Virus record (IMG/VR): IMGVR_UViG_3300031413_000001 | Strand: one strand, 5' to 3' | Length of the DNA stretch: 64,000 nt | Source of the DNA: a virus | Taxonomy: Duplodnaviria; Heunggongvirae; Uroviricota; Caudoviricetes | Shown here: positions 7,915-54,746 of the stretch, in pieces | How the letters are laid out: every line of letters starts with the position of its first letter | Position numbering within the stretch: the stretch's first letter is position 1 | Program-made: the position numbers and the translations under genes | Notes under the pieces: model-generated | Database searches by the model: none | What the model saw: only the letters and a program-made list of their open reading frames with translations | Told to the model about the DNA's origin: nothing

Positions 7915-7936
7915 TTAGTCCTCCGGATCTTCACCC

Positions 7937-29364: not shown

Positions 29365-29453
29365 TCTCAATCCCCTAGGAGTTAACCCATTATGGTACAA
29401 CTCCGCTCAACAATCAATAACTGTTGTACTTAGCGGATTGAGAATGTTGCGGT

Positions 29454-35630: not shown

Positions 35631-35843
35631 TTATTTTCCACCAAATATTCTGGGCAGTCCCATTACGCTCTCAAGCGCGATGTCGGTGTATTTGCCGGCA
35701 TCCCGTAAACCAACGCTTGTCAGCAATTCAGGAAAGGTCACATCATACGCGCGGAGACGCAGGGCATCGCCGGTCAAGCCCTTGAATGTCCCCGCATCTC
35801 GATGAAGTTCCAAGATGGCATCAGCGGTGTTTTGAGCGTTCAT
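35631..35843 (-). CDS. hypothetical protein
   Basis: ATGA overlap with NMNAT fusion. Confidence 0.65.
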   Translation of the reverse strand: MNAQNTADAILELHRDAGTFKGLTGDALRLRAYDVTFPELLTSVGLRDAGKYTDIALESVMGLPRIFGGK

Positions 35844-37555
35844 ACCACATCCAACAAAGCGTCGACGTGCCAGCGGCAAAAGTCCTCCATGGCGCCATCC
35901 TTGCCCCAGCCAATGCTGTTGGCCAGTTCCTGCAGGTCCAGTGAGCCATCCCTGATCAGGATCCCACTGTCGGTGAAGAAGCGGACGTTGGCCTGCCAGA
36001 TCACACGACTAAGTTCCATTTCGGCCGAGGGCGGAATCTTTGCCCGACTGCGAAGGCTCACATAGGGAAGCGCATATGGTGCGCGGCCTCGTTGACCACC
36101 ATTGAGCACAACGGAAAGCCCACCCATGTGACTTCCAACGATAAAGTCCCTCAGGTCCACCACATCATAGTAGGCGTCGTCCTTGTAGTCTGCAAAGTCC
36201 GAGAGAAGGATCACATCCGTGATGTTGATGCGATCGCCCAGTCTCATCCGTGCGCTGTTGATGGTCTCACCAGTCACGCTGTCATCTTCGACCAGCACGT
36301 AATCGCCGTCCGGGATGCTGTCCGCCTGTTCCTGCAAGCTGTCGAAGCCAAAGCGCGTATCGCGGAACAATGCCGAGAACTGTGAGCTGCTCTGACTGAA
36401 GTAGCGAGTGCTGTCCAGGTGGTGTACGCCCTGGTAATGGAAGAATGGATCTAAGCTGATCACCTTCCGATCACCGATCAGCCAAGTGGCCTTTTCCTTC
36501 TGCTCACTTACCGGCAGGAGATGGACTTTGTGATTTCCGCCTGCACCTTTGAACAAGTGTGCGATTGCAAGCCGAATTGCGCTCTGAAGCTGAACCCGAC
36601 GCTTTGTGAGCTCCTCACGACCGCCCGGCATCCTATTTGCCCAGCCGACGATTGCCTCGTCTTCCTCGTTGCGGATCAAGTAGGGAAGATTTCCTGTGTC
36701 CTGGTTCTTGTATTCCTGGAAATACTTGGCAACCCGGGGGTTCAAGTGATGATGCTCACCCTCGCGTACCAGCTTGCTCGACACTTCACTCCGCGTTACC
36801 TGTACGCTTGGAATACCAGTTTCCTGGAAGCCACTGTTGTCGGAGCCGTAGACGTAAAAGACATCAAAGATCTGTCCCAAGTTCTGGGACAAGTATGCTT
36901 CCATCCGGCGAGCAACCGCCGTGAAGTTTACCTCGCCCGGCATGTAGCGGGCAGCCCAGGGATCGACCTCAAGCCAGTCGCTGTCCTGCGTTGCGAGCTC
37001 CACCATTGCGATACGATGGACTGCCGAAATACCAGCCGTTCCGTTGTACTTTTGGCTAACGTAGCTGTCATGTCCTGGGGCGAAGAAGCCGCCCATTACT
37101 TGAAAGCCCTGGCCCTCAACGATCTCACGAGCGCGCTCCATCATTGCGATGTGCCCGTTGTGGATGGGAGCCATTCCGCCAGTTGTGATCAGGACTGCCC
37201 TGCGACCACCATTGTTTCCGCCGATCAGCTTGAGCAGGTTGTTGCGAACCTTCTGAAGCGACGTGGTCTGAAACGTTGGATTGTAGGTTCTATATTGCTC
37301 AACCAACTTGGGGAGCCCGTCGTCGAAGAATCCTGCGTTGAACAGGTCCTTGGTGTCGTGACGGAAGTCATAGACCTCACGGTACGTGGGATCGCTGAGT
37401 GCTTTCCAAGCGTACCGCTGATCGTCCGTTAGCACCTTGCCCGAACCAGCTTCTTCGATCTCTTCCCGCGTTGCTACGCGATGAAGGCCCAGCAGATTAT
37501 AAAGATCCGCTTCCGGTCGGTGGGCTGTTATGCCGCATGAATAAGTGTCCGTCAT
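35840..37555 (-). CDS. fusion: J-domain remnant + NMN/NaMN adenylyltransferase + type I PRTase-like domain
   Basis: TTGGMAPIHNGH (HxGH), HRIAMVELATQDSDWLEVDPW, YGSD; YVLVEDDSVTGETI PRPP-loop; LYNLLG...ALSDP..R..YD. Confidence 0.8.
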   Translation of the reverse strand: MTDTYSCGITAHRPEADLYNLLGLHRVATREEIEEAGSGKVLTDDQRYAWKALSDPTYREVYDFRHDTKDLFNAGFFDDGLPKLVEQYRTYNPTFQTTSLQKVRNNLLKLIGGNNGGRRAVLITTGGMAPIHNGHIAMMERAREIVEGQGFQVMGGFFAPGHDSYVSQKYNGTAGISAVHRIAMVELATQDSDWLEVDPWAARYMPGEVNFTAVARRMEAYLSQNLGQIFDVFYVYGSDNSGFQETGIPSVQVTRSEVSSKLVREGEHHHLNPRVAKYFQEYKNQDTGNLPYLIRNEEDEAIVGWANRMPGGREELTKRRVQLQSAIRLAIAHLFKGAGGNHKVHLLPVSEQKEKATWLIGDRKVISLDPFFHYQGVHHLDSTRYFSQSSSQFSALFRDTRFGFDSLQEQADSIPDGDYVLVEDDSVTGETINSARMRLGDRINITDVILLSDFADYKDDAYYDVVDLRDFIVGSHMGGLSVVLNGGQRGRAPYALPYVSLRSRAKIPPSAEMELSRVIWQANVRFFTDSGILIRDGSLDLQELANSIGWGKDGAMEDFCRWHVDALLDVV

Positions 37556-37596
37556 GCCACCCACTTTGCACCAGTCTGGAGACCAGTCAACCAGCT

Positions 37597-38013
37597 TTAT
37601 AGGTTTTGGAAGAGCTCATCACCATGCTCACACTGGATATTGCTATCCGTGATCTTCTGGCCAGCAGCCTTGAGAGCCTCGTTGCGGCGACTGACTTCCT
37701 CGGCAGTGTTGAACAGTCGGAGCGATTCCTTGCCCAGGTCGTGGACTTCCCGGATCGTGAGCTTTTTGTCGCCCAGCGCCTTGGCCGTCATCAGGCTCAG
37801 GTCGGGGCAAGCGCCGGTGTAGGTCTGGGTATAGGACTCGCCGTCACCATACTCCTTGGTTTCCGTTTCGTTGAAGACCCGCTTGGCGTCATAGTAATAA
37901 CGCATGGGCGCTTCGCGGTCGGGAAACAGAACGTACTCGGGGGTAATGATATAACCCCAAGCGGCCACGCAGCCGACCATTATGCCGATGCCGATCGACT
38001 TTCCAATGCTCAT
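37597..38013 (-). CDS. membrane-anchored hypothetical protein
   Basis: N-terminal TM; ATGA overlap. Confidence 0.7.
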   Translation of the reverse strand: MSIGKSIGIGIMVGCVAAWGYIITPEYVLFPDREAPMRYYYDAKRVFNETETKEYGDGESYTQTYTGACPDLSLMTAKALGDKKLTIREVHDLGKESLRLFNTAEEVSRRNEALKAAGQKITDSNIQCEHGDELFQNL

Positions 38014-38249
38014 CCCAGTGCCTTCATCAGGAGTTGATAGACGCGAGCCTGCGGGCTGTCGGGGTAGGCGTGGTCGATTGCCATACCGCAGCGACCAGTC
38101 CGATGACACATCGCCGCCCACAGTGCTTCATCGAGGCGCTGGTTGCTTTCGATCTTGGCTTCCGGGGTGGGGTTCCACTCCTTTCCGCCTGCCTTCATCT
38201 GCGCGTACAGGTTTGTGAATTCCTCGCGCTCGTCAGGGGTCAAGGCCAT
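38010..38249 (-). CDS. hypothetical protein
   Basis: operon context. Confidence 0.7.
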   Translation of the reverse strand: MALTPDEREEFTNLYAQMKAGGKEWNPTPEAKIESNQRLDEALWAAMCHRTGRCGMAIDHAYPDSPQARVYQLLMKALG

Positions 38250-38447
38250 TTACTTTCCCTTCTCGTCTTTGGATCCCGAAAAATACAGGAGGATCAGGAA
38301 GATGATGATCGACACCGGGAGGGTAGCGACCGTGTTGCGGGTTCCCTCGTCCCAGTGACCGATGTTCCAATCACCGGCGTTGATCATTCCCAGTGCGATA
38401 GCGATGCCCTGCATGATCGCAAAGAGGAGAAGAATGGCCTTGCCCAT
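38250..38447 (-). CDS. small membrane protein
   Basis: 2 TM. Confidence 0.7.
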   Translation of the reverse strand: MGKAILLLFAIMQGIAIALGMINAGDWNIGHWDEGTRNTVATLPVSIIIFLILLYFSGSKDEKGK

Positions 38448-38647
38448 CAGAAAATACCAGTCCAGTTTTCCGTGGGGCCGAGCACCTTACGAAGACAGGA
38501 GCGACTTTCATCGTCCAGCTTGATGGAGCTCACTTCCCGCGTGGTCATGTCCTCGACCTGGAGGTACATATAGCCATCGTGGTTGCTGGTACCCACCGTG
38601 AACCGATGGGTCTCGCTGATTGCCGAGTTTGCGATCTTTAACGTCAT
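38447..38647 (-). CDS. hypothetical protein
   Basis: AGGAGATCGA RBS. Confidence 0.7.
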   Translation of the reverse strand: MTLKIANSAISETHRFTVGTSNHDGYMYLQVEDMTTREVSSIKLDDESRSCLRKVLGPTENWTGIF

Positions 38648-38678
38648 GCTCGATCTCCTAACAGGAACTGGCCCAGTG

Positions 38679-38984
38679 TCAACCGTGTTCTTCGGTCCAC
38701 CGCTTCAAGTAGTCGTCGAGGTCGGTCCGACTGGTCACCGGCTTGCTGGCGAACGGATCGGGACGCCACTGGGGATCGTTGGAGAGAACGAGGATGCAGT
38801 TGTCGATCGCACCCTCAGGGCTCAGAAAGCAGTCATCGCTGAGCTGATCGCCGTTGGGCAGCTTGGCTGACCACGACCAGCCCGAGATACCGCTGACGAA
38901 CATGATGTCAACGCCCAGATGCTTGTCGCGAACGTCCTGGAACCGTGGATCATTCTGCTCGCACGGATTGTAGGTCTGAATCAC
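38679..38984 (-). CDS. hypothetical protein
   Basis: AAGGAGG RBS, GTG start. Confidence 0.7.
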   Translation of the reverse strand: MIQTYNPCEQNDPRFQDVRDKHLGVDIMFVSGISGWSWSAKLPNGDQLSDDCFLSPEGAIDNCILVLSNDPQWRPDPFASKPVTSRTDLDDYLKRWTEEHG

Positions 38985-39163
38985 TTCTTTGCCTCCTTGC
39001 TCCGGAGTTCGGCCTGACGCCAACCCCTCTGAAAATCCTTGGCCGCTGCACTGTCACCATATGGGTGGAAGTCAACGTCCTCGCCAGCTTCGAACGCTTC
39101 GCGCCCCTCGACCTCGTTGACATTAAAGCCAATCGGTAGCAGCCATATTGGGGTACGCTTCAT
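38981..39163 (-). CDS. hypothetical protein
   Basis: GGAG RBS; G..AF.AG....PY......F..GW motif. Confidence 0.65.
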   Translation of the reverse strand: MKRTPIWLLPIGFNVNEVEGREAFEAGEDVDFHPYGDSAAAKDFQRGWRQAELRSKEAKK

Positions 39164-39221
39164 GTTCAATCTCCAACCAGTATCACTTCTAAATAGCGAA
39201 CACTGGTGAGAGTTCAACCTT

Positions 39222-39587
39222 TTATTTGAAACGCCGATCAATGATTGCGCTGGCTAGATCATTGTAATAGCCGTTGTGGCCATCCAGATCGTAGAGGTAC
39301 CAGCCCGTTCGGTTGAGCCAACGATCCAGATCAGGATTGCCCACGTGCTCAATGAACAGTGGAAGACGGGGCTTCCAGTCCTCACAAAAGCGCGTGAATA
39401 TTCCCTGCCGCTGAAGATGCTGGGGGAGGGTGATGTTTGCCAGTGTGATCACACCCTTCCAGCGGATCGACCGCCGAACGTAGATCTCCAACCCGCTTGC
39501 CTCTGATGTCCACTCACAGTGTAGGCGGGCCATGCCCTCTGCGGGCTCCAGGGCGTATTCCTCGAAGCGTCTGAGTCCGTAGGTCAT
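39222..39587 (-). CDS. GNAT-like protein
   Basis: LANITLPQHLQRQGIFT motif A. Confidence 0.55.
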   Translation of the reverse strand: MTYGLRRFEEYALEPAEGMARLHCEWTSEASGLEIYVRRSIRWKGVITLANITLPQHLQRQGIFTRFCEDWKPRLPLFIEHVGNPDLDRWLNRTGWYLYDLDGHNGYYNDLASAIIDRRFK

Positions 39588-39991
39588 CCGATTGTCACCG
39601 ATACGTCGAAGCGAGTACGCTCACCCATGTCGCCCTTGAACGTGATGCTATCCCACCAGTCCTCGGTGTCGCTGAAGCTGTACTTTCGGCTTGCCCTGAG
39701 GTTGGTGTGAAAGATCTCGGGCTTTCGCAGCTTGTCCTCCACGACTTCAACCAAGAGGTGCCGAATGTAGCTGTAGGAAAACTCATCGACCTTATGCAGG
39801 AGTTCCGTGTCGATCAGGAGGTGAAAGTCCCGCATGACCATGGGCTCATCGTATTCGAAACCATCGCCATCATCGTACATGGTCCAGTTCTCGTGCCACT
39901 CCAGGACTGGATAGTGACCGAATGCCACGAGGAACATCTGCCGGAGAACCTCGGGTTCAACTTCCAAAGCCTGATTGTAAGTTAGCGCCAC
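39584..39991 (-). CDS. hypothetical protein
   Basis: promoter element, AGGGAG, GTG start. Confidence 0.7.
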   Translation of the reverse strand: MALTYNQALEVEPEVLRQMFLVAFGHYPVLEWHENWTMYDDGDGFEYDEPMVMRDFHLLIDTELLHKVDEFSYSYIRHLLVEVVEDKLRKPEIFHTNLRASRKYSFSDTEDWWDSITFKGDMGERTRFDVSVTIG

Positions 39992-40049
39992 GATGTTCTC
40001 CCTAGCCGTTGTCCCAGCCCTAACACCAGAGCTGGGACAGTCAACCAGT

Positions 40050-40811
40050 TTATACCAGGAGATTGACGTACATCTTCTGGATGCGGGGCCAAGCCACCGA
40101 CTTGCTGGGGTTAAAGCGCATCTTGTCCACGACCAGGATACGTCGCGCATAGCCGAGCACTACGTCAGTGGGAGCCTCGTCGAGCAGCTTGGTCAGGAAA
40201 CCGTCGATCTCTTCGTCGGTAGCCGTTCCGGCCTTGCTGGAATTGGCCAGTTCCAGATAGCGCGCTTCCGTTTCGCCGTTGTGCCAGTTTCCCAGGAGCT
40301 CATACGTTGCATTGGCCTGCGCGACACGATCGGCCTCTTCCTGACGAGCGGTCTCCTTGATGTCGCGACGGATGCTCTCGATCCGCTCCTTGGTGTGCTC
40401 CATCAGGGCGCTCTGGAATGCCTCGTAGGTGTCGACGGCCGATCCCTCGTCCTGGATCGCGAAGCCCTGGTCCTCGTCCTGCCATGCTTCCCAGAGGGTG
40501 ACGAGATTGTCGGGGATGAACGTAACGTAGCGGGTGGAACCCATATGGCAGCCGCGCGCATACTCATCATAGGAGAACGTTACGCGGAAGCCACGATCAA
40601 GTGCCTCGCGCTGGAGCCGAATGTCCTCGATGGTTCCCTGATGCTCGCCCCACCGACGACCATCGCTCTCGAAGCTCTTGTTGAAGTGCGTCTTGACCGC
40701 CTCTTCCACGGGATAGTTGCGCTCTGCGCCGGCGATCAGAACAGCGATCGTTTCCAGAACCGTCTGGGGATCACGCTCGCGCTCCACAATCTTAAACAGC
40801 TGACTCGTCAT
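40050..40811 (-). CDS. hypothetical protein
   Basis: AGGAGATCGA RBS. Confidence 0.75.
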   Translation of the reverse strand: MTSQLFKIVERERDPQTVLETIAVLIAGAERNYPVEEAVKTHFNKSFESDGRRWGEHQGTIEDIRLQREALDRGFRVTFSYDEYARGCHMGSTRYVTFIPDNLVTLWEAWQDEDQGFAIQDEGSAVDTYEAFQSALMEHTKERIESIRRDIKETARQEEADRVAQANATYELLGNWHNGETEARYLELANSSKAGTATDEEIDGFLTKLLDEAPTDVVLGYARRILVVDKMRFNPSKSVAWPRIQKMYVNLLV

Positions 40812-40821
40812 ATTCGATCTC

Positions 40822-41010
40822 CTATGCAGCGTTGACCTGGAAGCCGTAGCCCTTGCCAGATTCAACAAACAGCCGACCCGCGACCTCGGCGGATTCTGCA
40901 GTGGGAAAGGAGGCCGCTTTGCTAAAGTAGCGGTTCTTCTTGCCCTGGTTGTCGAGATAGAACTCTTCGTTTTTCTTGGAGAACTTCCCCATTACTTCAA
41001 CGACGAACAT
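40822..41010 (-). CDS. hypothetical protein
   Basis: promoter element and RBS. Confidence 0.7.
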   Translation of the reverse strand: MFVVEVMGKFSKKNEEFYLDNQGKKNRYFSKAASFPTAESAEVAGRLFVESGKGYGFQVNAA

Positions 41011-41064
41011 TCCACTCTCCTCTGCATTTCCGATGTTCTGGATGTAACACCACCCACCCTGCTG

Positions 41065-41394
41065 TCAACCAGGTAGATAGGCTGGCAGCTTTTCCTTGAG
41101 GAGGCGGACCAACTCAGGGTCCATGCGCTCATACTCATCAGGAACATTGAGGACAACCTGTCGCTTGCCATGGAGCGCCCGTTTGAGCGCCTTGCGTCCA
41201 GTTGCTGTCTTCCGATGGTGTTGCTCCATGAAGACCACCACGTCGGCCCATTCCACCATCTCAGGATTCAGGACCACCACTGCATCAAGGTCGGTGCCTG
41301 CGCTGCGGGTCTCCACAGTGGACGAAGCAAACACTTCCTCACCAGTCTTGCTGCGAAGCTTGTTCTGGCTACATACAAAAAGAAGCTTGGTCAC
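41065..41394 (-). CDS. low-molecular-weight protein-tyrosine-phosphatase-like protein
   Basis: LFVCSQNKLRS (CX5R), SAGT, WAD, VPD.Y..MDP.L. Confidence 0.85.
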   Translation of the reverse strand: MTKLLFVCSQNKLRSKTGEEVFASSTVETRSAGTDLDAVVVLNPEMVEWADVVVFMEQHHRKTATGRKALKRALHGKRQVVLNVPDEYERMDPELVRLLKEKLPAYLPG

Positions 41395-41455
41395 CGGGTG
41401 TCTCCTGTTCCACTATGCTTTCCTTTTAGCAGAACAGGACACAGTGTCAACCAGG

Positions 41456-41698
41456 TTATCGCTTCTGCGAGGCCTTCTCGGCCTTTTTGATCTCCGCCAC
41501 CCATTCGTTCTCACGATTGCTCAGCCAGGTGCAAAAGCCCACGGAGAAGAACAGGACCACGTAGCCGAAGAAGCCAGTCAGGCCTTCGGGATTCTGAGGC
41601 GTGACCCAAAAGCTGTTGATGCTGTGGTTGGTCGTTACGGCAACGAAGCCGTAAAAGAGAGCGTTGATCCAGACGTTCATCGTCAGGGGACGGCTCAT
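41456..41698 (-). CDS. small membrane protein
   Basis: 2 TM. Confidence 0.6.
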   Translation of the reverse strand: MSRPLTMNVWINALFYGFVAVTTNHSINSFWVTPQNPEGLTGFFGYVVLFFSVGFCTWLSNRENEWVAEIKKAEKASQKR

Positions 41699-41709
41699 CC
41701 ACTGGTGGA

Positions 41710-41910
41710 TCAAAGCTCGTTTTCCTTGTACCAGCCCCACTCGGCGTTGCTCAGGGTCTTCATGACCTCGATGAACTTCTTCACGGCCTGTTTGGCCTCC
41801 ACGGCGGGGATTACCCCGTTATCGTTGGCCGAGAGTGCTGCGGCGTAGGTTCGCGCATACACGTCTGCGACCATCTTGTCCTTGGCAATGATTGCCTCAC
41901 GACCGTCCAT
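41710..41910 (-). CDS. hypothetical protein
   Basis: promoter element and AGGAGG. Confidence 0.7.
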   Translation of the reverse strand: MDGREAIIAKDKMVADVYARTYAAALSANDNGVIPAVEAKQAVKKFIEVMKTLSNAEWGWYKENEL

Positions 41911-41973
41911 TGGGACCTCCTTTTGTTTCCGATAAAACTGTCCTAACACCAGGACAGGTGGATGCAACCGCTT

Positions 41974-42237
41974 TTACGCGGTGTAAATCTCGGCCAGGAT
42001 ATCGTCGACCATCCGGTTGGGCTCACTGTCGCAGGCACCCAAGTGGATGAACTCGTTCATCGCGGTGTTCATTGCGCGCCACACGCTGCTGGGACTGGAG
42101 CCCTCCATGTTGACAGCCGCTTCCAGGGCCTGGTTCAGATGCTTGGCCGCCGTGTCGCGACCCTTGTTTCCGTACAGGTCCCAATCGTCGGCCGTGAACG
42201 TTGCCTTGATGGTCGTCTTCTTCGTCAGTCCGCGCAT
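41974..42237 (-). CDS. hypothetical protein
   Basis: single-gene cassette. Confidence 0.75.
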   Translation of the reverse strand: MRGLTKKTTIKATFTADDWDLYGNKGRDTAAKHLNQALEAAVNMEGSSPSSVWRAMNTAMNEFIHLGACDSEPNRMVDDILAEIYTA

Positions 42238-42304
42238 TGCCGATCTCCACGTTGTCTGCCTATGTTCTGGTTGTAACACCAGAACACCCAGGGTCAACCA
42301 GTTT

Positions 42305-42577
42305 TCAGAAGAAAGTCACATTCTCCGGACCAAAGTGGAGGACGATTTCACCGACCTGTGCATCAGTGAATGGCTTGCCAGCGTTGGGGTCCACGCCATC
42401 GCAAACGTAGTAGATGCCCTCGTGGAGAACTGCGATATCGCCCTTCAGGGGACCGCCCCACATATCTTCGCAGAATTCCTTGGCGTCTTCGATCGTCTTG
42501 CCACCAGTGCCCAGCGTGAACTCAACGGCCTCGCCGGTGAATTCCATGCCATCGCGATCCGTCGTTACCTGTGCCAT
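42305..42577 (-). CDS. acidic hypothetical protein
   Basis: single-gene cassette. Confidence 0.75.
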   Translation of the reverse strand: MAQVTTDRDGMEFTGEAVEFTLGTGGKTIEDAKEFCEDMWGGPLKGDIAVLHEGIYYVCDGVDPNAGKPFTDAQVGEIVLHFGPENVTFF

Positions 42578-42655
42578 GTTTCGATCTCCTGCTGCGCGCT
42601 TGCGCTGTTTGCCTATGTTCTGGTTTTACAACCTGGACGCTGCGCGTCAACCGCT

Positions 42656-42919
42656 TTATGCAGCGGTGAGCAGCTTTTCATCCATGTAGCCTAGACCATC
42701 TGCAGGCCGACCACGAACCATGTAGAAAGTGCCGTCCGGCTGAACGATGGGAGCGTGGACCTTGTAGCCCCATGCCATCACGGCAGTGTTCACAGCCGCT
42801 GTCTGATGCTTGGTGTGACAATGTCCACCAACCTGGCACCACGTCCGACGACCATCAATGCGGCCTTCGACTTCCACGCCATGCTTGGTGAACTTGACTT
42901 TTTGACCGTTCTCGAACAT
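42656..42919 (-). CDS. hypothetical protein
   Basis: single-gene cassette. Confidence 0.75.
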   Translation of the reverse strand: MFENGQKVKFTKHGVEVEGRIDGRRTWCQVGGHCHTKHQTAAVNTAVMAWGYKVHAPIVQPDGTFYMVRGRPADGLGYMDEKLLTAA

Positions 42920-42980
42920 TGCTTGCTCCTGCTTGCCTATGTTCTGGTTTTAGCAGAACTGGACAGCAGGGCAACCAGTT

Positions 42981-43178
42981 TTAGTCCTCTTTGGGCAGAA
43001 AACTCACGATCTCGCGAGCAGCCTGGATCTCGCCCTGATCCTCGCCACGCGAATAGGCGTCGTCGATGTTGCCGCCCACGTAGCTATTCAGGTCGAAGTC
43101 ATCGTCCTCATAGTCCATTGCCTTGGCGGCCAGCTTCTTCATACGAGCAACGAACTCGTCCGGGACTTCGATCATCAT
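42981..43178 (-). CDS. hypothetical protein
   Basis: AGGAG RBS; GGNIDDAYSRG motif. Confidence 0.7.
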   Translation of the reverse strand: MMIEVPDEFVARMKKLAAKAMDYEDDDFDLNSYVGGNIDDAYSRGEDQGEIQAAREIVSFLPKED

Positions 43179-43189
43179 GGTCTTCTCTC

Positions 43190-43384
43190 CTAGCGATTTG
43201 CGCGACGACTTGCGCGACGGATGCGATTCCTTGCCCGTTCCGGCTTGGCACGACGCTGCCACAAGAGGAACTTAGCACGGCGTGCTCGCTCCAGGGCTAT
43301 AGCGGAATTGACCTCCGACTTGAAATCACGGATCATCTCGTCGCTCATGCTACCCGAGGTGTCGAGGTAGAATGGAATGTTCAT
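43190..43384 (-). CDS. short protein starting with a VWA MIDAS fragment
   Basis: FYLDTSGSMSDE...FKSEV. Confidence 0.55.
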   Translation of the reverse strand: MNIPFYLDTSGSMSDEMIRDFKSEVNSAIALERARRAKFLLWQRRAKPERARNRIRRASRRANR

Positions 43385-43641
43385 CAGCCGATGACCTTTG
43401 CGCCATCGACACCGTACGTCCAGTGGCCCTTCAGGCTCTCGCGCATCACGAGGTAGCGATCGGCCTCGTCCTCGCTCATGCCGCGGCTCATCAGGTCACC
43501 GGCGTCCTCACCGTCCGTGAGGTCCATGAATGCGTTGAGGAGTTCCTGAACGGAAACGCCCGTGCCAACCTTGAGCACGCCGTCGAACATGATCTCTGCG
43601 GTGGGGAGAACTTCGCCTACCAGCTGAACTGTCGTCTTCAT
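43384..43641 (-). CDS. hypothetical protein
   Basis: promoter element and RBS. Confidence 0.75.
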   Translation of the reverse strand: MKTTVQLVGEVLPTAEIMFDGVLKVGTGVSVQELLNAFMDLTDGEDAGDLMSRGMSEDEADRYLVMRESLKGHWTYGVDGAKVIG

Positions 43642-43707
43642 CTTCGATCTCCTGTCTTCGTTTCCTATAACTCTGGTGTAGCGGATTCCACACCAGAGTC
43701 AACCGCC

Positions 43708-43866
43708 TTATTCGCCGATGATCAGCGCGCCATCCTGCGTGAGCGTTGCATCTTCGGCCTGGGTGAGACGATCGTCTTCACCTGCGATGGTGATCGCCAT
43801 GTCCAGCTGGATCTCATCCATGTTGTCGATGATTGCCTTCAGCATCCGCGGGGTCAGTACGCTCAT
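43708..43866 (-). CDS. hypothetical protein
   Basis: single-gene cassette. Confidence 0.7.
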   Translation of the reverse strand: MSVLTPRMLKAIIDNMDEIQLDMAITIAGEDDRLTQAEDATLTQDGALIIGE

Positions 43867-43933
43867 CTTCGATCTCCTAGTTGTTTGCCTACAACCCAGA
43901 GTTAGCACATTCTAACTCTGGGTCAACCGCTTT

Positions 43934-44266
43934 TTAGTGCCGCGTGTTGATCGCACCACGTGCCATTGCGCTGTAATACTGCGAGGGCATGTCGGCCTTC
44001 AGACGGGGCGTCAGCATCGCCATGTAGTTGCCGCCCATCGTCTCGTAGCCCTTTGCCAGCTTGCTACGCAGGAGATCGGCGGGGACGCCGTTGATCTCGG
44101 TCTTGAACTTCAGCGCGCCGTTGCGACGACCCCAGAAGCGAACCAGCGTGTTGCCGATCTTCGCCAGACCCCAGACCTTGTCGTTCTGCGCTGCGCCGCC
44201 GCGAATGCCGCGCTTGCCCTCGTTGTAAAAGTGCGCTGCTGCGATGATTTCGATCTGTGCGGCCAT
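43934..44266 (-). CDS. WGR-domain protein
   Basis: NDKVWG...FWGRR...KLAKGY. Confidence 0.7.
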   Translation of the reverse strand: MAAQIEIIAAAHFYNEGKRGIRGGAAQNDKVWGLAKIGNTLVRFWGRRNGALKFKTEINGVPADLLRSKLAKGYETMGGNYMAMLTPRLKADMPSQYYSAMARGAINTRH

Positions 44267-44356
44267 TTTCTGCTCCTGCTGTGTGCGTTTCCGATAAACA
44301 GACAATAGCACCAGAGTTTGGCCGCGCAACCGCTTTTTAACCAGAGTTTGAACTTT

Positions 44357-45283
44357 TTATCGACGATGCGTTGCTGCTACCCTCATTGGAACTGCCTGAC
44401 TGGTCCGCGTCTTGTAGCGGATGCTGATCGTCATGGTCACCTGCCGGGTGTTGGCACGACGGGCAATCTTCCGAGCCTTCTTCAGCCGGCGGTTCGCTGC
44501 ATCATCACGCGCCTTCAGCTTTCGCTCACGTGTGGTCATCTCGCGGTAAAAGATGTGGTCACCGATCTGCCCCACGACCGTCATATCATAGCGCCATTTG
44601 GGCTTGACTGCCGGTGTGTGATAGTAGGTTGCCCCACCGGTGTTGTCCGTGTTGTCGCCGTTCCACACCAGCTTTGCATCCTTTTGAATGCTGCGCCAGA
44701 GGATCTTCTCGGGATGATCTTCGGGAAGCTGGAGCATGTTGAAGAACGCAACCCGCTGACTGTCGTCGTTCCGGTTCCATGCGCTGTACTGCCAGGGCTT
44801 GTGACACACTCCCCGGAGACCGATGCCAAACATCCGCTTGTTGGCCAGGACACGATTCTTGATAACGTGCATGACTGCGAGGCGACCGGGACGCTTTTGA
44901 TTCCGCGCTTCCATCCAGGTCGTGACCGCCAGTGGCGTCTCGTTGATGGGGCCGCTGTAGGTGTCGCGAGGAATACGGTGACGGCGGATACGAATCTTGG
45001 TCCGCTTCCGGTGAACCTTGGCCTTGGCGTGCGAGGTGTGGGCTTTGCTGTGAATGGACGGACGATGCTGCGCCGCCGGTGCACTGGCAATCAAGCCAGC
45101 GGCCAGGATACCAGCGATCATGGGCTTGGTGCCACGGCTGACGATCTCTTCTGCGAGAACCTCGCTGGGCTGTGGGCGATGGAAGGTGTGCCGCATTGTC
45201 TCACGCGCACCGGGGATTTGGGTTGACCATTCGTCTTCCGACATCAGGTCGGACGTGAAGGCAATGGTCTGATTAACTGACAT
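44357..45283 (-). CDS. cell wall hydrolase, SleB/Hydrolase_2 family
   Basis: WMEAR, AVMHVIKNRV, QYS.WN, GATYYH, IGDHIFY. Confidence 0.88.
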   Translation of the reverse strand: MSVNQTIAFTSDLMSEDEWSTQIPGARETMRHTFHRPQPSEVLAEEIVSRGTKPMIAGILAAGLIASAPAAQHRPSIHSKAHTSHAKAKVHRKRTKIRIRRHRIPRDTYSGPINETPLAVTTWMEARNQKRPGRLAVMHVIKNRVLANKRMFGIGLRGVCHKPWQYSAWNRNDDSQRVAFFNMLQLPEDHPEKILWRSIQKDAKLVWNGDNTDNTGGATYYHTPAVKPKWRYDMTVVGQIGDHIFYREMTTRERKLKARDDAANRRLKKARKIARRANTRQVTMTISIRYKTRTSQAVPMRVAATHRR

Positions 45284-45360
45284 TCTATTCGATCTCCAAG
45301 AACATTGTTCTACGTCTATGCAACAATATCCTTAAAGAAGCGTTTGCGAGTTGTCAAATC

Positions 45361-45705
45361 CTAGACAGTCTCGCGCCAGTTGTCACCAAAGCCGCGACGA
45401 CCGCCACTCTTTATGGCGTAGCTGGCAACCTCCCGGGCATACCTGCAACCCTCACTGCCAGCGGAAAAGCTCACGCAGACAGCAGGTCGCTTCCGGTATA
45501 TCGTGCAGCCCACACAAGCGCCAATGGTTCCCTCGAGTGCTTGGCAGCGTCCACCGAGGTGCCGTTTGAGAAAGCCACCAGTGACCATACGCTTGGGAGT
45601 GGAGTCCTCGGGCGTCACAGAAACTTTGCCGGCCACGACGCAACATGCGCCGCAAGCCTGGCAATCATATGGACCCTCTGGGGGAAGTGCGTCAGACTTC
45701 TGCAT
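45361..45705 (-). CDS. YkgJ/CxxCxxCC Fe-S/Zn cluster protein
   Basis: CQACGACC...C.AL...CTIY..RP.VC. Confidence 0.85.
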   Translation of the reverse strand: MQKSDALPPEGPYDCQACGACCVVAGKVSVTPEDSTPKRMVTGGFLKRHLGGRCQALEGTIGACVGCTIYRKRPAVCVSFSAGSEGCRYAREVASYAIKSGGRRGFGDNWRETV

Positions 45706-45934
45706 AAAGACGCACCGTTACGTTACCGCCAGGCGAAAAATAATCGTATGCCTGACCGTCGAGATTTTCGGCCGTCTCGATGTTGGGGAGAAAAAGCTTC
45801 ATGCGACCCGTCAGCGCGCTCTTGATGTAAAAGCCCGAGAGGGGAAAGCCGTGAATCTTAAGATCGTCCAGAAAGCTAACGCCCTCATTGGACTTCCACT
45901 TAAAGTCCTGGCTCTTAAAAGTCCGCATCGTCAT
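45692..45934 (-). CDS. hypothetical protein
   Basis: promoter element and RBS. Confidence 0.7.
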   Translation of the reverse strand: MTMRTFKSQDFKWKSNEGVSFLDDLKIHGFPLSGFYIKSALTGRMKLFLPNIETAENLDGQAYDYFSPGGNVTVRLYAEV

Positions 45935-46009
45935 CGCCTGTTCTCCGCTGCCTATACACCAGAGTTAGCAGAAACTGGAACACTGTCAACCAGTTTTATT
46001 CAGTCACAG

Positions 46010-46172
46010 GCAGAAACGGGAGGGACAAGCCCTCCCGATGACCGCAGTTGATCTCAGGATTATCTCCCGGAAGCCATATCCGGGGCCTGAGGACCGCTAA
46101 CAAAACCACGCTGCCCTTTTTCTGGAATCGGGCTCTTTATGCCGGGCTGTAAACAATACCGAGCGTCTTGTT
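46010..46172 (-). ncRNA. candidate structured small RNA
   Basis: own promoter (-35 ~46202, -10 ~46182), no AGGAG RBS, nested helices, terminal 8-bp hairpin. Confidence 0.4.
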
Positions 46173-46339
46173 ACCAGTTGTTTAGCACTCTGGTTGGGCA
46201 CGTCAACCAGAGATTTAGGGTTGTTGATTTATCCAAGCTTCACGCGCTCCACGTGTGGCAAAACGACGGCTCAGATTTCCTTGCCGGGCAAAGTAGTGGT
46301 TTCCCTCGGTGGTCAGGGTCCAGCCCTTGTAGACAACCA

Positions 46340-46693
46340 TCAGTCGTCCACCCCTGCGCCCCAGTATTGGTCATGGATGCTGTCATTCTTATCGTGACAG
46401 AACAAGCGGGTCTTCTTGACCATGGCGGACCAATCATCCCAGACCAAGTCTAGCTCAACCGTGTCATCGCCATCTTTGGGCGGAACGCTCTCGAGAAGGA
46501 TACTGAGCTCCTCGACTTCCTTGATCTTCCACTTGCTGTCCTTGGGCGAGAAGCCCGCCTCCAGCCATACCTGGCCAGTTGCGGGTTCTGTTTCCTCAGC
46601 CTTGCGCCAAAGGTACAAGCGATAAGGAATGCGCCAATATTTCCATGCTGCCCACCCGGCGGTGGTCAATGTTCCAAATGTAATCAGCGCCAT
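46340..46693 (-). CDS. hypothetical protein
   Basis: GGAGG RBS. Confidence 0.7.
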   Translation of the reverse strand: MALITFGTLTTAGWAAWKYWRIPYRLYLWRKAEETEPATGQVWLEAGFSPKDSKWKIKEVEELSILLESVPPKDGDDTVELDLVWDDWSAMVKKTRLFCHDKNDSIHDQYWGAGVDD

Positions 46694-46741
46694 TCTGCCC
46701 TCCAAACCAACCCATTACTTATGGATTGGCCGGGGGCAGTT

Positions 46742-47404
46742 TTAGCGGTTGGCTGAGGGGATTGTTGGGCTCACTGCGCCCTGGCGAGGGTTGGGGATCG
46801 CTGGATCCAGCGGAGTAAGGGCCGGATCTTTGAACTCCGGGGTGTTGCGAATCTTCATCGCATTGCCCAGCATGGCATAGGGAGCCAGCGTACCATCGGC
46901 CAGCTTGTACCGGCCCTTGGTGTTGCTGCCCGGACATGCGAAGCCAGTTGCGCTGTAGAAGGCGTCAGCGTTCATTGGGTTGCGGCTGTCTCGATCTTGG
47001 CAGAGGCGTGTGACTGCGACGCCCGAGAGTCCAAGCGCAAACCACGCTGCTGCGTCGCTTCTCCGCGTACAGTCCTGGTCATTCTTGCCGATGTTGATGT
47101 TGAAGCCGATGGGGCCACCTGCGCCCCCCACACCAGTACCAACCAAGCATGGGTTAGCACCAGCAAAGTAACTGCCACTAACACTCGGAGTCGTGTAGGT
47201 GTGGCCGCTATAGTTGACATCCTGCTTTTGCGGGACATTGGTCTGGGGACCTGTGATTGCTTGAACGTTCACTACGTTCGTTGCTTGGCTGGTACCAGTT
47301 GTGCTGTTGGTACCCGGTGTGGAACCATTGGCGTTTCCGTCTGTGGTCTGTGCCAGAGCCGGACCGCTGAGCAACATGCTCAACAATAGAATGAGTTTAC
47401 GCAT
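46742..47404 (-). CDS. secreted protein with Cys-containing domain
   Basis: Sec signal (ALA-Q); NPC..G.G.GG...DQDC.RR...LCQD. Confidence 0.75.
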   Translation of the reverse strand: MRKLILLLSMLLSGPALAQTTDGNANGSTPGTNSTTGTSQATNVVNVQAITGPQTNVPQKQDVNYSGHTYTTPSVSGSYFAGANPCLVGTGVGGAGGPIGFNINIGKNDQDCTRRSDAAAWFALGLSGVAVTRLCQDRDSRNPMNADAFYSATGFACPGSNTKGRYKLADGTLAPYAMLGNAMKIRNTPEFKDPALTPLDPAIPNPRQGAVSPTIPSANR

Positions 47405-47435
47405 CTCTCTCCCCTTAGTTTCACGGATTAAAAGT

Positions 47436-47460
47436 TGGGAGGGGTTTTAGGCCCCTCCCA
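47436..47460 (-). terminator. intrinsic terminator-like hairpin between the two secreted genes
   Basis: TGGGAGGGG-N7-CCCCTCCCA, then ACTTTT on - strand. Confidence 0.55.
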
Positions 47461-47470
47461 GGGAGTTGGC

Positions 47471-48121
47471 TCAGTTGGTCGACTCGTCGCTATGCGAGTT
47501 GCTGGCGCTGTTGGAGTTGCTGTTGCTGGCCGAGAAGTCCTGGAAGGACGACTGGGCGGCCTGGTAGTTGGAGTAGTTGGAGGCCTGGTTGGCATAGCCA
47601 GTCTCGTTCTGGTAAGCCGTGTAGCCACCGTCGACGCGAACCGAGAAGGCCGAACCGCCATTGCTCTGACCGAACGTCTGGACCGAAGCCTGGAACGCGC
47701 CGCCATTGTCAACGGTGCCCGTTGCGAAGCCCGAGTGGTTGCTGGTCGTTGTGGTCTCGAACGGTGTCACGCTGGTCTGGCTGTATGCCGTGCCATTGCT
47801 CTCGAAGCGCGCGAACGCATCATTGGCCGAACCGCCCAACGTGGTGTTGAAACCCGATGCGGACGAACCGATCGTGTTGCCGTTGCCGTTGAACGTGCCG
47901 TTGATGTTGGCCGACTGGCCGGCGTTGTTGGTGCCGCCCTGATTGGAGAAGCCCATCGTGCTGAAGGCGTTCTGACCATTGTTGATGGTCGTCGTCGAGG
48001 CCTGTGAACCGCTCTGCGATGCGCTGTTGCTGTTCGACTGTGTGTTGGACTGTGCCGAAGCTGCGCCCGAAACCGTCAGTGCCAGCGCCGCAACGGCGCC
48101 CATAAAGATGTGCTTCATCAT
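47471..48121 (-). CDS. secreted S/N/G/Q/T-rich low-complexity protein (amyloid/curlin-like composition)
   Basis: Sec signal (ASA-Q); few charged residues; periodic F. Confidence 0.75.
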   Translation of the reverse strand: MMKHIFMGAVAALALTVSGAASAQSNTQSNSNSASQSGSQASTTTINNGQNAFSTMGFSNQGGTNNAGQSANINGTFNGNGNTIGSSASGFNTTLGGSANDAFARFESNGTAYSQTSVTPFETTTTSNHSGFATGTVDNGGAFQASVQTFGQSNGGSAFSVRVDGGYTAYQNETGYANQASNYSNYQAAQSSFQDFSASNSNSNSASNSHSDESTN

Positions 48122-48145
48122 CGATCTCCTATGGCCTAACAAAGC

Positions 48146-48161
48146 GTTAAGCTGCTATTAA
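48146..48161 (-). promoter_or_regulatory. CtrA-box consensus TTAA-N7-TTAAC
   Basis: TTAATAGCAGCTTAAC on - strand, between TTGACA (~48183-48188) and the RBS. Confidence 0.55.
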
Positions 48162-48279
48162 GCTGCGACAGTTCTGCAGGGCTGTCAAACAAAAATCGCA
48201 ACTATCTTTGAAGTAAAGTGTTGCTCGACTTTTGCGGTTGCAACATAGGAGAGTAGGTTACTTACAAGCTACGCCTGCA

Positions 48280-48438
48280 TCAATCCCAAAAGTCGATGCC
48301 GTTCATGAGCAGAACGATCACCACTGCGATGAGAAGCGGAATCCAACAGGCGAGCCAACCAAAGGCCGTGATGGCGAAAAGCGCCTTGATTGCTGTTACG
48401 ACGATGCTGGCAATGACGCCGAGGAAGATGAGAAACAT
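48280..48438 (-). CDS. small membrane protein
   Basis: 2 TM. Confidence 0.65.
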   Translation of the reverse strand: MFLIFLGVIASIVVTAIKALFAITAFGWLACWIPLLIAVVIVLLMNGIDFWD

Positions 48439-48439
48439 C

Positions 48440-49207
48440 TCAGGCAAGGGGAACCCTTTCAAACAAAATGTCGGTGCGGATGATGATCTTCTCAGGATCA
48501 CCGGCTACCAGTGGCTCGCTGTCGTGGAGCATACGATGCGGGAACAATAGCGCGGAACCTTCCTGTGGTGCCACGCGAAGGGCTACCTCATCCTCTCGAG
48601 CACTGCGATCCCAGTCCGAGAAGTTGTATTCCCACATGGGCTTTCCCACTTGCTCGTCGTGGATGAATCGTGTCGCGCCATGCTCGTTAGTGGTCAAGTA
48701 GATGACCAGCGTTTCCAGGGTCCTGATCTCACGGCTTTGACGAAACGTCTCGTCATAGTGGGCAACCAGCTTTCCGCCTTCCGCATAACGAATGTAACGG
48801 AATAGCGGAGATACCCCAATGGGGCGCCATACGGGGTAGCCGTCGTGATCGGTGGGCGAGGTAGCATCGCAAAGCATCCGGTCGCCATAGAAGGGCCGCA
48901 AGCGTTCCCAGATGCGTTCCGCCAGCGCGGGGTTCCAGTTGGAAAGCCTGTAGTTTCCGATCTCATTGTAGGTGTGGTCGGCTTTGCCATCCAATCCCAC
49001 TGCCAGCCACTTGTTCTTGTCCAGCTGTTCCCGGAGCGTCGCGGTGATCTGCCAGCCCAGCAGGTTGTCGACTACTTCGACGGAATAGGAAGTGCCGGGA
49101 ACGTTCTCGAAGGTCCGGCCAGGCAAAACGCCCCAGCTATCGTCGATGGAAGCCTGCGCGGCATCATCGAGTTCGAAGTGGTTTACAAAGTTGGACTTGT
49201 CAACCAT
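48440..49207 (-). CDS. 2OG-Fe(II) dioxygenase (prolyl-4-hydroxylase-like)
   Basis: R.IRY..GG.L.AHYD...YL...GAT.F...F.H...HD...K..IRTD. Confidence 0.85.
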   Translation of the reverse strand: MVDKSNFVNHFELDDAAQASIDDSWGVLPGRTFENVPGTSYSVEVVDNLLGWQITATLREQLDKNKWLAVGLDGKADHTYNEIGNYRLSNWNPALAERIWERLRPFYGDRMLCDATSPTDHDGYPVWRPIGVSPLFRYIRYAEGGKLVAHYDETFRQSREIRTLETLVIYLTTNEHGATRFIHDEQVGKPMWEYNFSDWDRSAREDEVALRVAPQEGSALLFPHRMLHDSEPLVAGDPEKIIIRTDILFERVPLA

Positions 49208-49400
49208 TGTCGTCCTCCAGAACTTCCAGGTCCTCTGCATTGTAAGGACCAAACATCCTGTCATCCTCAGGATCCTGGACGCTCAGGTCAACTCGGAGCC
49301 AACCATCATCGAACAGCACGGCCTCACCAACGAAGCCAGTGCAGCCATCGGTGCACCTGATTATCTTGACCTTTTGGCCATCAAGTTCCTGATTGTCCAA
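49200..49400 (-). CDS. hypothetical protein
   Basis: AAGGAGG RBS, TTG start. Confidence 0.65.
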   Translation of the reverse strand: MDNQELDGQKVKIIRCTDGCTGFVGEAVLFDDGWLRVDLSVQDPEDDRMFGPYNAEDLEVLEDDNG

Positions 49401-49569
49401 CTCGTTGCCTCCTTGCAGCCAATATCAGGATCAGCTGGTCGGACAGCTTTTCGGCGTCCTCGTACCTGATCTTACTGGCTATCTGTATAGGGCCTTCCTG
49501 GATTGTCAACAGGATATTTTCCTCGTTGAGATCCGAGGCGTTGACATTGACGGGCCGGGGACGGGGCAT
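49381..49569 (-). CDS. hypothetical protein
   Basis: TGATG coupling. Confidence 0.6.
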   Translation of the reverse strand: MPRPRPVNVNASDLNEENILLTIQEGPIQIASKIRYEDAEKLSDQLILILAARRQRVGQSGT

Positions 49570-49727
49570 CAGTCCTGGAGACGACCGATTGGATCCATCA
49601 TGCCGCAAAGCCGAAGCCATGCGCGATGGCTCTTGGCAGCCGCAGCATCAGCGGCCTTCTGTGCTTCCACCTTTCGTGCTGCTTCGCGCATTTCGATCTC
49701 TGCGATAACCTGTCCGTACTGGCTCAT
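49569..49727 (-). CDS. hypothetical protein
   Basis: TAATG coupling to nadE. Confidence 0.6.
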   Translation of the reverse strand: MSQYGQVIAEIEMREAARKVEAQKAADAAAAKSHRAWLRLCGMMDPIGRLQD

Positions 49728-50755
49728 TATGCCCTCCAGGGAGTGTTGTTCCAGCCACCAGTAACACCACAATCCAGGATGTCAAGGTGGACAGCGGGCG
49801 ACCGACCCAGATACTTGTGAGCGTTGTACTTGTGCATACGCTCCAGGTTCTCGCTGTATTCCTCCCACTGTGCCTGGGCTGCTGGGAGATTGTTGCCGAT
49901 GCTCAGGCAGCGCGTGACATCATAGACCACACTGTCGACGCCACCATAGGCAAGCTGTCGAGCACCAGCGCGCTTGAACTCCATGTAGAGCTCCACGAAA
50001 TCATATGGAGCGCCGAACACAACCTCGTCAGTCGTCGCATCATACATATCGCCAGTTGGGGCGCGATTTAGGACTTCCTCGGGAACACCCAGGAAACGAC
50101 CCAGATCGTAGATCTCGCTCTTGTAAGCATCGCTGATCAGCTGAACGTCGACCATGCCATCGCTAGCCTTGCCGAAATAGCCGAGGTAGCCGCCCTCCGA
50201 AAGGTTGGTCGTGCCGATCATCAGGCCAGGCTGACCCTGTGCTGCCAGGATGCTGGTAACATAATAGTAAGCCGGCGTCCGCGCGTAGCTGGTTGCCTGA
50301 CCAGCGCACCACAGTTCCTTTTCATCGCTGGGATACCCGACTGCGCTCTCGACCTCTGCGATCAATGGACCGGTGATTCGGCTCATATTGATCACTGCGG
50401 CCTTGACCCCAAAAGCCTCGCAGACTTCCTGTGCGAGCCGCGTGGCCTGCCTCTGGCCCGTAACCCCTGGGTTGACGTTGTCGGGCATTGTGATTGCCAC
50501 GATACGTTCGATGGGGCTGTCATCGGCCCGAGCGGCCATTTCCACGAGGCCGAGAACGACCGCGCTGTCGATGCCGCCCGACACTGCGACGACGGCGGAC
50601 TTGAGCCCTGCCTGACGATAGTAGTCGTTGAGGAGAATGGTCTTTCGTTCGATGTAGTCCTCGACCACGAAGTTCCGTGCCTCGCGGACAATTTCCAGTG
50701 CCCTCTTGAGCGCGGGCTCCATGACCATGTTGGTCTTTTCGTTACGAATTTCCAA
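49727..50755 (-). CDS. nadE: NH3-dependent NAD+ synthetase
   Basis: SGGIDS PP-loop, GTTNLSE, GYFGKASDG, KSEIY.L...LGVP, APTGD. Confidence 0.9.
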   Translation of the reverse strand: MEIRNEKTNMVMEPALKRALEIVREARNFVVEDYIERKTILLNDYYRQAGLKSAVVAVSGGIDSAVVLGLVEMAARADDSPIERIVAITMPDNVNPGVTGQRQATRLAQEVCEAFGVKAAVINMSRITGPLIAEVESAVGYPSDEKELWCAGQATSYARTPAYYYVTSILAAQGQPGLMIGTTNLSEGGYLGYFGKASDGMVDVQLISDAYKSEIYDLGRFLGVPEEVLNRAPTGDMYDATTDEVVFGAPYDFVELYMEFKRAGARQLAYGGVDSVVYDVTRCLSIGNNLPAAQAQWEEYSENLERMHKYNAHKYLGRSPAVHLDILDCGVTGGWNNTPWRA

Positions 50756-50820
50756 TTTCGATCTCCTGTTGTTCCATTCAACATAGTGCCAGACTGGAAC
50801 GCGTCAACCAGTTTAGTCAC

Positions 50821-54685: not shown

Positions 54686-54746
54686 TCTAGATCTCCTCGT
54701 TTCCGATGTTCTGGATCTAACACCAGAGTTTGGTAGGGCAACCGCT

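Follow-up and report, generated by a model that had tools for sequence, protein, structure and literature searches.

The 64,000-nucleotide stretch of DNA analysed here (the window), from the tailed-phage record IMGVR_UViG_3300031413_000001 of IMG/VR, carries a nadE gene of a separate subfamily (nadE*), a gene for a 2-oxoglutarate (2OG)-Fe(II) oxygenase and a gene in which a nicotinamide mononucleotide adenylyltransferase (NMNAT) domain is fused to a type I phosphoribosyltransferase (PRT)-like domain, and these three genes are the dispersed form of one conserved module, which elsewhere forms an operon or a single protein of about 1,200 residues. An earlier note on this DNA, made from the sequence alone, had singled out the fusion gene and nadE* as a possible deamidated route to NAD+. 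Its reading of the former as an HxGH adenylyltransferase joined to a type I PRTase-like domain was confirmed, for the adenylyltransferase by motifs, Pfam and structure searches and for the PRT-like domain, with moderate confidence, by motif, profile and structure comparison, and its reading of the latter as an NH3-dependent NAD synthetase agrees with Pfam and NCBIfam cut-offs, a PP-loop and the lack of a glutaminase domain. The parts of the module in the window are the following.

35840-37555, minus strand: fusion gene of 571 amino acids (aa), with a helical N-terminal domain, an NMNAT domain and a type I PRT-like domain

37220-37555, minus strand: helical N-terminal domain of the fusion protein, about 112 residues

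36704-37219, minus strand: NMNAT (HIGH-type nucleotidyltransferase) domain, residues 116-287, recognised by Pfam, sequence match to solved structures and Foldseek

35843-36703, minus strand: type I PRT-like domain, residues 288-574, with the phosphoribosyl pyrophosphate (PRPP) loop at residues 422-434, recognised by motif, profile and structure comparison

37586-37594, minus strand: promoter-like motif CTGGTTGAC upstream of the fusion gene, with the ATG about 30 nt after it

48440-49207, minus strand: 2OG-Fe(II) oxygenase gene (PF13640, 33.8 bits against a cut-off of 27), in an open reading frame (ORF) that extends to 49264

49208-49726, minus strand: three small overlapping or translationally coupled ORFs between nadE* and the oxygenase gene

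49727-50755, minus strand: nadE*, encoding an NH3-type PP-loop amidase of the NAD-synthetase family, 342 aa (PF02540, TIGR00552)

50803-50811, minus strand: CTGGTTGAC upstream of nadE*, followed by an AGGAG site and a TTG start

The linkage is seen most directly in gene fusions. A profile of the PRT-like domain, searched against 1.84 billion cluster representatives, recovered at least 1,048 relatives, 511 of them at E≤1e-30 and most of them NMNAT fusions of about 570 aa. When the architectures of 214 relatives were called by phmmer with the window NadE, the oxygenase (48440-49264) and the domains of the fusion protein, NadE, oxygenase, NMNAT and PRT-like domains were found in one chain in 16 metagenomic proteins of 1131-1212 aa, oxygenase, NMNAT and PRT-like domains in three, and NadE, NMNAT and PRT-like domains in one. 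Pfam read the 1131-1212-aa proteins as NAD_synthase, 2OG-Fe(II) oxygenase and CTP_transf_like, together with the PRT-like domain. Since the oxygenase domain of the four-domain proteins is homologous to, and corresponds to, the product of the window gene at 48440-49207, the unit comprises three genes, with a gap of about 11 kb in the window, and the two-gene unit of the earlier note was incomplete in leaving out a member that both fusions and neighbourhood identify. In L028, a 19-kb contig of 42% GC, a 1,208-aa four-domain protein (7788-11414) is followed by two PhyH-family oxygenase genes, with AAA_5, vWA and pyrophosphatase genes nearby.

Gene neighbourhoods lead to the same unit. A scan taking one genome per prokaryotic species yielded 39 loci, from gut Clostridia/Bacilli metagenome-assembled genomes (MAGs), several lineages of the Candidate Phyla Radiation (CPR), Gaiellaceae, Kofleriaceae, an alphaproteobacterial MAG and the isolate Variovorax sp. 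WDL1. A NadE of the window subfamily lies upstream of the fusion gene and on the same strand within 2.5 kb in 39/39 and within 100 bp in 34/39 of them, and in 8 of the 39 the oxygenase stands between NadE* and the fusion gene or is fused to NadE*. NadE* is within 2.5 kb of the fusion gene in 7/13 viral loci, the module genes being adjacent in the distant viral contigs L007-L013, and the megaphage clade to which the window belongs preserves the gene order, with NadE* and the oxygenase first and the fusion gene after an interval of 8-13 kb filled by other genes. Domain identities, intact motifs and genetic linkage are matters of observation. We treat the three genes as one module because of the fusion proteins, the adjacency in all 39 prokaryotic loci and the order kept in the megaphage clade; the earlier view that its two genes belong together, for which co-occurrence was the proposed check, stands, as the two co-occur, are adjacent and are fused in relatives. 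Since the module is sporadic in cellular genomes (1/301 genomes of the family of Variovorax and, at E<1e-30, 5/301 of the class of Collierbacteria), it behaves there like mobile or phage cargo. In Variovorax sp. WDL1 (L068) a gene of the Mom family (DNA adenine modification) at 2397-3302 on the minus strand is found among hypothetical genes, some 2 kb upstream of the module, which suggests a prophage or island context.

That the genes are ordinary auxiliary NAD genes which happen to lie 12 kb apart would agree with the window itself, where about 11 kb of unrelated genes stand between them and their promoter-like motifs are separate; however, the adjacency, the four-domain fusions and the conserved order refute this explanation, and we give it next to no credence. 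The motif, CTGGTTGAC, occurs in 24 exact copies in the window (those at 1782, 7974, 25946, 33201, 37594, 50811 and 62468 among them) and in 58 with at most one mismatch vs 17.8 expected; the copies are always oriented with the genes, are followed by CCAG(A/T)CTGG and precede many genes. The promoter element that the earlier note had placed before each of its two genes is therefore real in the sense that this repeated promoter-like motif stands upstream of both. Because the ATG of the fusion gene follows the motif by only about 30 nt, its mRNA may be leaderless.

The four-domain fusions imply that the amidase, the oxygenase, the adenylyltransferase and the PRT-like enzyme act on one pathway, and we hypothesize, with confidence that falls a little short of an even chance, that the module builds a pyridine dinucleotide as an assembly line of PRT, NMNAT, NadE* and oxygenase. 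In this scheme, in which all substrates, the sequence of reactions, the end product and a counter-defence role of whatever kind are our inferences, the PRT-like domain would first couple PRPP to a pyridine base bearing a carboxylate, either nicotinate or a near precursor, the resulting mononucleotide would be adenylated by the fused NMNAT domain, NadE* would turn the carboxylate into a carboxamide at the expense of ATP and NH3 to give NAD+, and the oxygenase would contribute an O2-dependent step on the base or on an intermediate. In the phage such a pathway would run beside a canonical PncA/PncB/NadM/NadE set, raising or rebuilding NAD+ during infection. The partner domains of the known NMNAT fusions NadR and NadM-Nudix handle ribose-phosphate substrates, and in NadR the NMNAT domain shares a chain with the enzyme supplying its substrate, an arrangement analogous to the one proposed here. 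The catalytic motifs of NadE*, the oxygenase and the fusion protein are all intact, as this reading would have it.

NadE* scores well above the family thresholds (PF02540, 100.6 bits against a cut-off of 21; TIGR00552, 99.9 bits against 63.65), has an SGGIDS PP-loop and gives no match to the glutaminase domain (CN_hydrolase, PF00795); its gene starts at a TTG preceded by the AGGAG ribosome-binding site. It forms a subfamily of its own with a private C-terminal motif, whose members are 34-61% identical to one another and 21% identical to the second NadE of the phage. Its closest solved structure by sequence is Francisella tularensis NadE (3fiu; E 1.3e-18, the next being at 1.3e-14).

The fusion gene lies in an ORF (35840-37564, minus strand) that opens at an in-frame GTG at 37564; its likely start is the ATG at 37555, as in P0003, the same protein found in a database. 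The N-terminal domain is present in 127/214 relatives by phmmer, and Pfam gave it a below-cut-off DnaJ match (E 0.046), too weak to establish a J-domain remnant. CTP_transf_like matches residues 127-206 (E 6e-8), and by phmmer the solved structures closest to the NMNAT domain are NMNATs of eukaryotic type, at E 1e-12 to 1e-10 (9rpk, at 1.5e-12, and NMNAT1/3). An AlphaFold2 model of the fusion protein (pLDDT 93.2, pTM 0.92) led Foldseek to NMNAT1/3 and NadD folds at E of about 1e-7. Across 39 homologues the motifs GGxxPxHxGH (GGMAPIHNGH in the window) and SSKxxR are invariant, including H135, G137, H138, S262, S263 and R267, and they correspond to the (H/T)xGH motif of HIGH-type nucleotidyltransferases and to the second, ISxxxxR-type, ATP motif. 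The TIGR00482 score of the domain is 40.7 bits, below the equivalog cut-off of 112. With both ATP motifs kept, the NMNAT domain is intact and is predicted to adenylate nicotinamide mononucleotide (NMN) or nicotinate mononucleotide (NaMN).

The assignment of the C-terminal domain to a divergent type I PRT fold, which we make with moderate confidence, draws on an invariant PRPP loop, on profile matches and on the type I PRTs at the top of a structural search. The loop motif YVLVEDDxV(T/S)GxT is kept in 39/39 homologues, and the domain profile aligns it to the PRPP loops of APRT, OPRT and HGPRT, with a best E of 0.002 (APRT), while no PRPP synthetase was matched at E≤10. A separate model of the C-terminal 287 residues reached a pLDDT of 95.2; in an exhaustive structural search the best matches were almost all type I PRTs, but with Z scores of only 6-8, and the longest alignments were to archaeal purine PRTs, PRPP synthetases also appearing (3mbi, Z 7.2; 2c4k, Z 6.0). 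By profile and by aligned length the domain is nearer to the base PRTs than to PRPP synthetase, which speaks for the assembly line. The fold check proposed in the earlier note leans towards the five-stranded alpha/beta core of type I PRTs, at that moderate level. As a whole the domain resembles uncharacterised ESM Atlas clusters (TM 0.8-0.88), one of which is fused to a HAD phosphatase; PF00156 is carried by only 14% of one such look-alike cluster. About 20 residues of the domain are invariant, including six arginines and several aromatics across the 'hood' region.

The setting of the module, judged by its neighbours, is NAD metabolism, as the earlier note had supposed. NrtR, a Nudix-type regulator of NAD genes, stands beside the module in four loci (L033, L046, L062 and L064), in the first of which the next genes of the string encode PncB, a glutamine-dependent NadE and NrtR, and in the viral contig L007 a Nudix gene and Nampt lie just upstream of the module. 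Relatives G002-G005 stand in here for the whole genome of the window phage (G001 and G002 being the same record). In G002, which is 98% identical, a canonical salvage cluster (G002:C1:36992-43563, locus L025) lies about 215 kb from the module and encodes NadE2, a bona fide PncB (441 bits, NF003704, above cut-off), a NadM-like NMNAT and a PncA-like isochorismatase, a predicted complete route from nicotinamide to NAD+. The cluster adjoins genes for a phage lysozyme and a T4 gp15-like tail-sheath stabiliser.

Several observations weigh against the assembly line. Clear type II PRTases (PF04095) are encoded in 5/6 carrier phage genomes that are at least 90% complete, with a sub-threshold match in the other; PncB is present in G001-G005 and a type II PRTase also in G616, making nicotinate PRT activity redundant, and in L033 PncB even shares an operon with the module. 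Cellular carriers have PF04095 in 4/5 and NadC in 3/5, one, of uncertain completeness, having neither, which leans against the type I domain as the only pyridine PRT of small CPR genomes. The PRT assignment itself, of moderate confidence, draws on one motif together with Z scores of 6-8; none of the Pfam PRT models (PF00156, PRTase_1/2/3) matches the C-terminal domain at E≤1, and its model gave no Foldseek match in the PDB at E≤0.001. Finally, the proposed route leaves the oxygenase unexplained, as it does the radical S-adenosylmethionine (SAM) and pyridoxal phosphate (PLP)-decarboxylase-like genes of the gut Clostridia-type loci. Since the module is found together with canonical type II PRTases, NaMN can be made without the type I domain, which is probably no simple replacement for the canonical nicotinate PRT; and since the phage lineage already has the PncA/PncB/NadM/NadE set, the module does something that this set does not, or is a parallel branch. 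The deamidated route with a type I PRTase proposed in the earlier note is therefore upheld in its linkage, fold and NAD context and weakened by the coexisting PncB and the unaccounted-for oxygenase.

Part of this evidence would suit a route of the Francisella kind, in which PncB of phage or host gives NaMN, which NadE* turns into NMN and the NMNAT domain then into NAD+, the C-terminal domain being non-catalytic or no PRT at all. It might sense PRPP or a ribose-5-phosphate ligand, or it might be a pyrophosphokinase of the PRPP/ADP-ribose-pyrophosphate type, like the PRPP synthetase (PRPS)-like Adps; the latter is kept only as part of this alternative because the profile search reached no PRPP synthetases. 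The best structural match of NadE*, 3fiu, is a NaMN-specific enzyme (PMC12143786), PncB or Nampt coexist with the module, PRPP synthetases are among the structural matches of the C-terminal domain, PRPP synthetase itself is lacking in 4/5 complete megaphage relatives (no match to Pribosyltran_N), and the first NAD+ reconstitution pathway (NARP1) is an earlier case in which a PRT-fold enzyme was misread (bioRxiv 10.1101/2024.02.11.579819). However, the invariant residues of the C-terminal domain look like a specific active site, its profile reached base PRTs, the lead of 3fiu over the next structure is small, and the oxygenase is unexplained here too. We consider this alternative possible, though on balance rather unlikely.

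The window oxygenase has an intact HxD...H...R centre, with H169, D171, H243/H247 and R263 invariant in 14 sequences; its likely start is the ATG at 49207, with a GGAGGA site ahead, and no solved structure matched it by sequence. The first of the three small ORFs that precede it has its ATG overlapping the nadE* stop codon, and none of the three is conserved in the relative L003, which has a 150-bp gap there. The gut Clostridia-type clade lacks the oxygenase and has PLP-decarboxylase-like and radical SAM genes directly upstream of NadE*, and, downstream, a GNAT gene, in some cases fused, and another radical SAM gene. This set may stand in for the oxygenase under anaerobic conditions, an idea whose weight is limited by the clade being a single lineage (44-100% pairwise identity). 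In seven diverse loci, a gene of the Asp/Glu-racemase family lies directly upstream of nadE*. By tblastn the window holds no Asp/Glu racemase-like, radical SAM, PLP-decarboxylase-like or methyltransferase-like gene, no NrtR and no copy of a 386-aa recurrent-neighbour protein.

An intact oxygenase inside the same polypeptide in 16 proteins is what one would expect if the product were non-canonical, that is, a dinucleotide of adenine with a hydroxylated or differently modified pyridine or other heterocycle, or if NAD+ were made from a precursor that needs oxidation (N-demethylation, or oxidation of ring or side chain); such a product might be inhibitory, act as a decoy or serve as a cofactor resistant to NADases. 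The radical SAM, PLP-decarboxylase-like and GNAT genes that replace the oxygenase in the gut clade and the recurrent racemase-family gene are in line with this, as is the complete canonical route of the phage lineage, which makes plain redundancy unattractive. On the other hand, by their scores the NMNAT and NadE domains are ordinary NAD enzymes, the presence of NrtR, PncB and Nampt as neighbours speaks for NAD itself, L007 and L061-L064 have neither oxygenase nor radical SAM, and the radical SAM clade is one lineage. We regard a product of this kind as improbable, still short of the Francisella-like route in likelihood. The assembly line of PRT, NMNAT, NadE* and oxygenase stays the reading that we prefer.

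NARP1, NARP2 (both in bioRxiv 10.1101/2024.02.11.579819) and NARP3 differ from the module in every component except NMNAT. NARP2 (Nampt with the NMNAT/Nudix protein NatV, as in vibriophage KVP40) resembles it in that a phage PRT step is followed by NMNAT adenylation to NAD+, and the viral relative L007 has Nampt and a Nudix gene by the module; unlike in NARP2, the PRT here is of type I and fused to NMNAT, and it is accompanied, obligatorily or often, by a NadE-type amidase and a 2OG oxygenase. The NARP2 pair is not found, as the window has an NMNAT and, by tblastn, no gene of the Nampt/PncB family, close relatives carrying PncB. NARP1 (PRPS-like Adps with Namat) also places a PRT-fold protein in an unexpected NAD+-rebuilding reaction; here, however, there is a single PRT core vs a two-domain PRPS, with no Namat/Nampt partner, and the NARP1 pair is missing too, the type II PRT of the relatives being PncB. 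In NARP1, NMNAT and NadE play no part (bioRxiv 10.1101/2024.02.11.579819). NARP3 (PnuC with a NadR-like protein; PMC13464706) likewise fuses NMNAT to a domain supplying its mononucleotide, but that domain is a P-loop riboside kinase and the pathway depends on a transporter, whereas here the partner is PRT-like and PnuC (PF04973) is absent from five relatives.

The Preiss-Handler clusters of jumbo phages (pncB-nadD-nadE; PMC11662467) share with the module a deamidated route that ends with NadE, and one such cluster is present in the phage lineage. The module stands apart from it as an additional set, distinguished by a NadE subfamily of its own, the type I PRT-like domain and an oxygenase. The NadE (NMN synthetase)/NadM route of Francisella similarly pairs an NH3-type NadE with an NMNAT, but at about 25% identity, and NadE* is extended at its C-terminus by about 80 residues that carry a conserved motif of their own. 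Sets of a Ter-associated PRTase and a HAD phosphatase, attributed to synthesis of nucleoside-like metabolites (PMC7824862), also couple a divergent type I PRT to an enzyme acting on its 5'-phosphate product, although these PRTases belong to Pfam PRTase_2, which does not match the C-terminal domain.

Among cultured phages the PRT-like domain has a single relative, the hypothetical protein gp162 of Acinetobacter phage ME3, found with a distant viral homologue as query and also the sole Foldseek match of the C-terminal model in BFVD. In ME3 (vB_AbaM_ME3, NC_041884.1, 210251-228700; L069), gp156 is a 2OG oxygenase, gp162 the PRT-like protein, gp163 an NAD synthetase and gp165 a macrodomain protein; the gp162 gene adjoins that of the NAD synthetase, a 2OG oxygenase gene is about 1.3 kb upstream, and the four genes lie directly upstream of a Ter-like cluster (vWA, TerD-like, PRTase_2, HAD), which is about 3.7 kb from the gp162 gene. 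A survey of jumbo-phage NAD systems was made without the NMNAT-PRT-like fusion (PMC7824862), and our literature searches on the module, on NARP4 and on PRTase with NMNAT and 2OG returned no description of it. Within the literature searched, the module is thus new among NAD salvage and reconstitution systems, even though part of the novelty claimed in the earlier note was already taken by the NadE-using Preiss-Handler clusters (PMC11662467) and NARP3 (PMC13464706).

The phage genome from which the window comes is very large, at about 460 kb: P0003 (571 aa) is encoded on a 463,863-bp contig, and IMG/VR relatives measure 416-465 kb, several with terminal repeats and a CheckV completeness of 100%. 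Neither the window region (megablast) nor the fusion protein (tblastn) matched any of 50,697 cultured-phage records. From about 25 kb onward nearly all genes of the window are on the minus strand, and ARAGORN found no tRNA genes in it. Its other recognisable genes are listed here.

16262-17542, plus strand: class I aminoacyl-tRNA synthetase of the Glu/Gln type (PF00749, with an anticodon-binding domain)

22417-23676, plus strand: TPM phosphatase with TPR repeats

28918-29400, minus strand: lone response-regulator receiver

44357-45283, minus strand: SleB-type cell-wall hydrolase

54224-54787, minus strand: protein with a C-terminal DUF6011

56590-57102, minus strand: YkuD L,D-transpeptidase

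59932-60951, minus strand: Trp-tRNA synthetase (Trp/Tyr type; PF00579)

NAD+ depletion is a major bacterial strategy against phages, and three phage pathways that rebuild NAD+ are known. The module is widespread and enriched in huge phages, gut phage-like contigs and CPR bacteria, its genes being annotated only as 'hypothetical' or 'NaMN adenylyltransferase', and Variovorax sp. WDL1 and, more distantly, Acinetobacter phage ME3 are cultured entry points to it. At its boldest, and we offer this as a doubtful possibility, it would be a fourth phage or mobile-element route to NAD+ or an analogue, combining the first type I pyridine phosphoribosyltransferase, a fused NMNAT, a dedicated NadE and an oxidative step (a 2OG oxygenase in aerobes, possibly radical SAM in anaerobes) that would open up a precursor outside known salvage. 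The four-domain fusions would mean either a new way of making NAD+ or a route to an unfamiliar dinucleotide.

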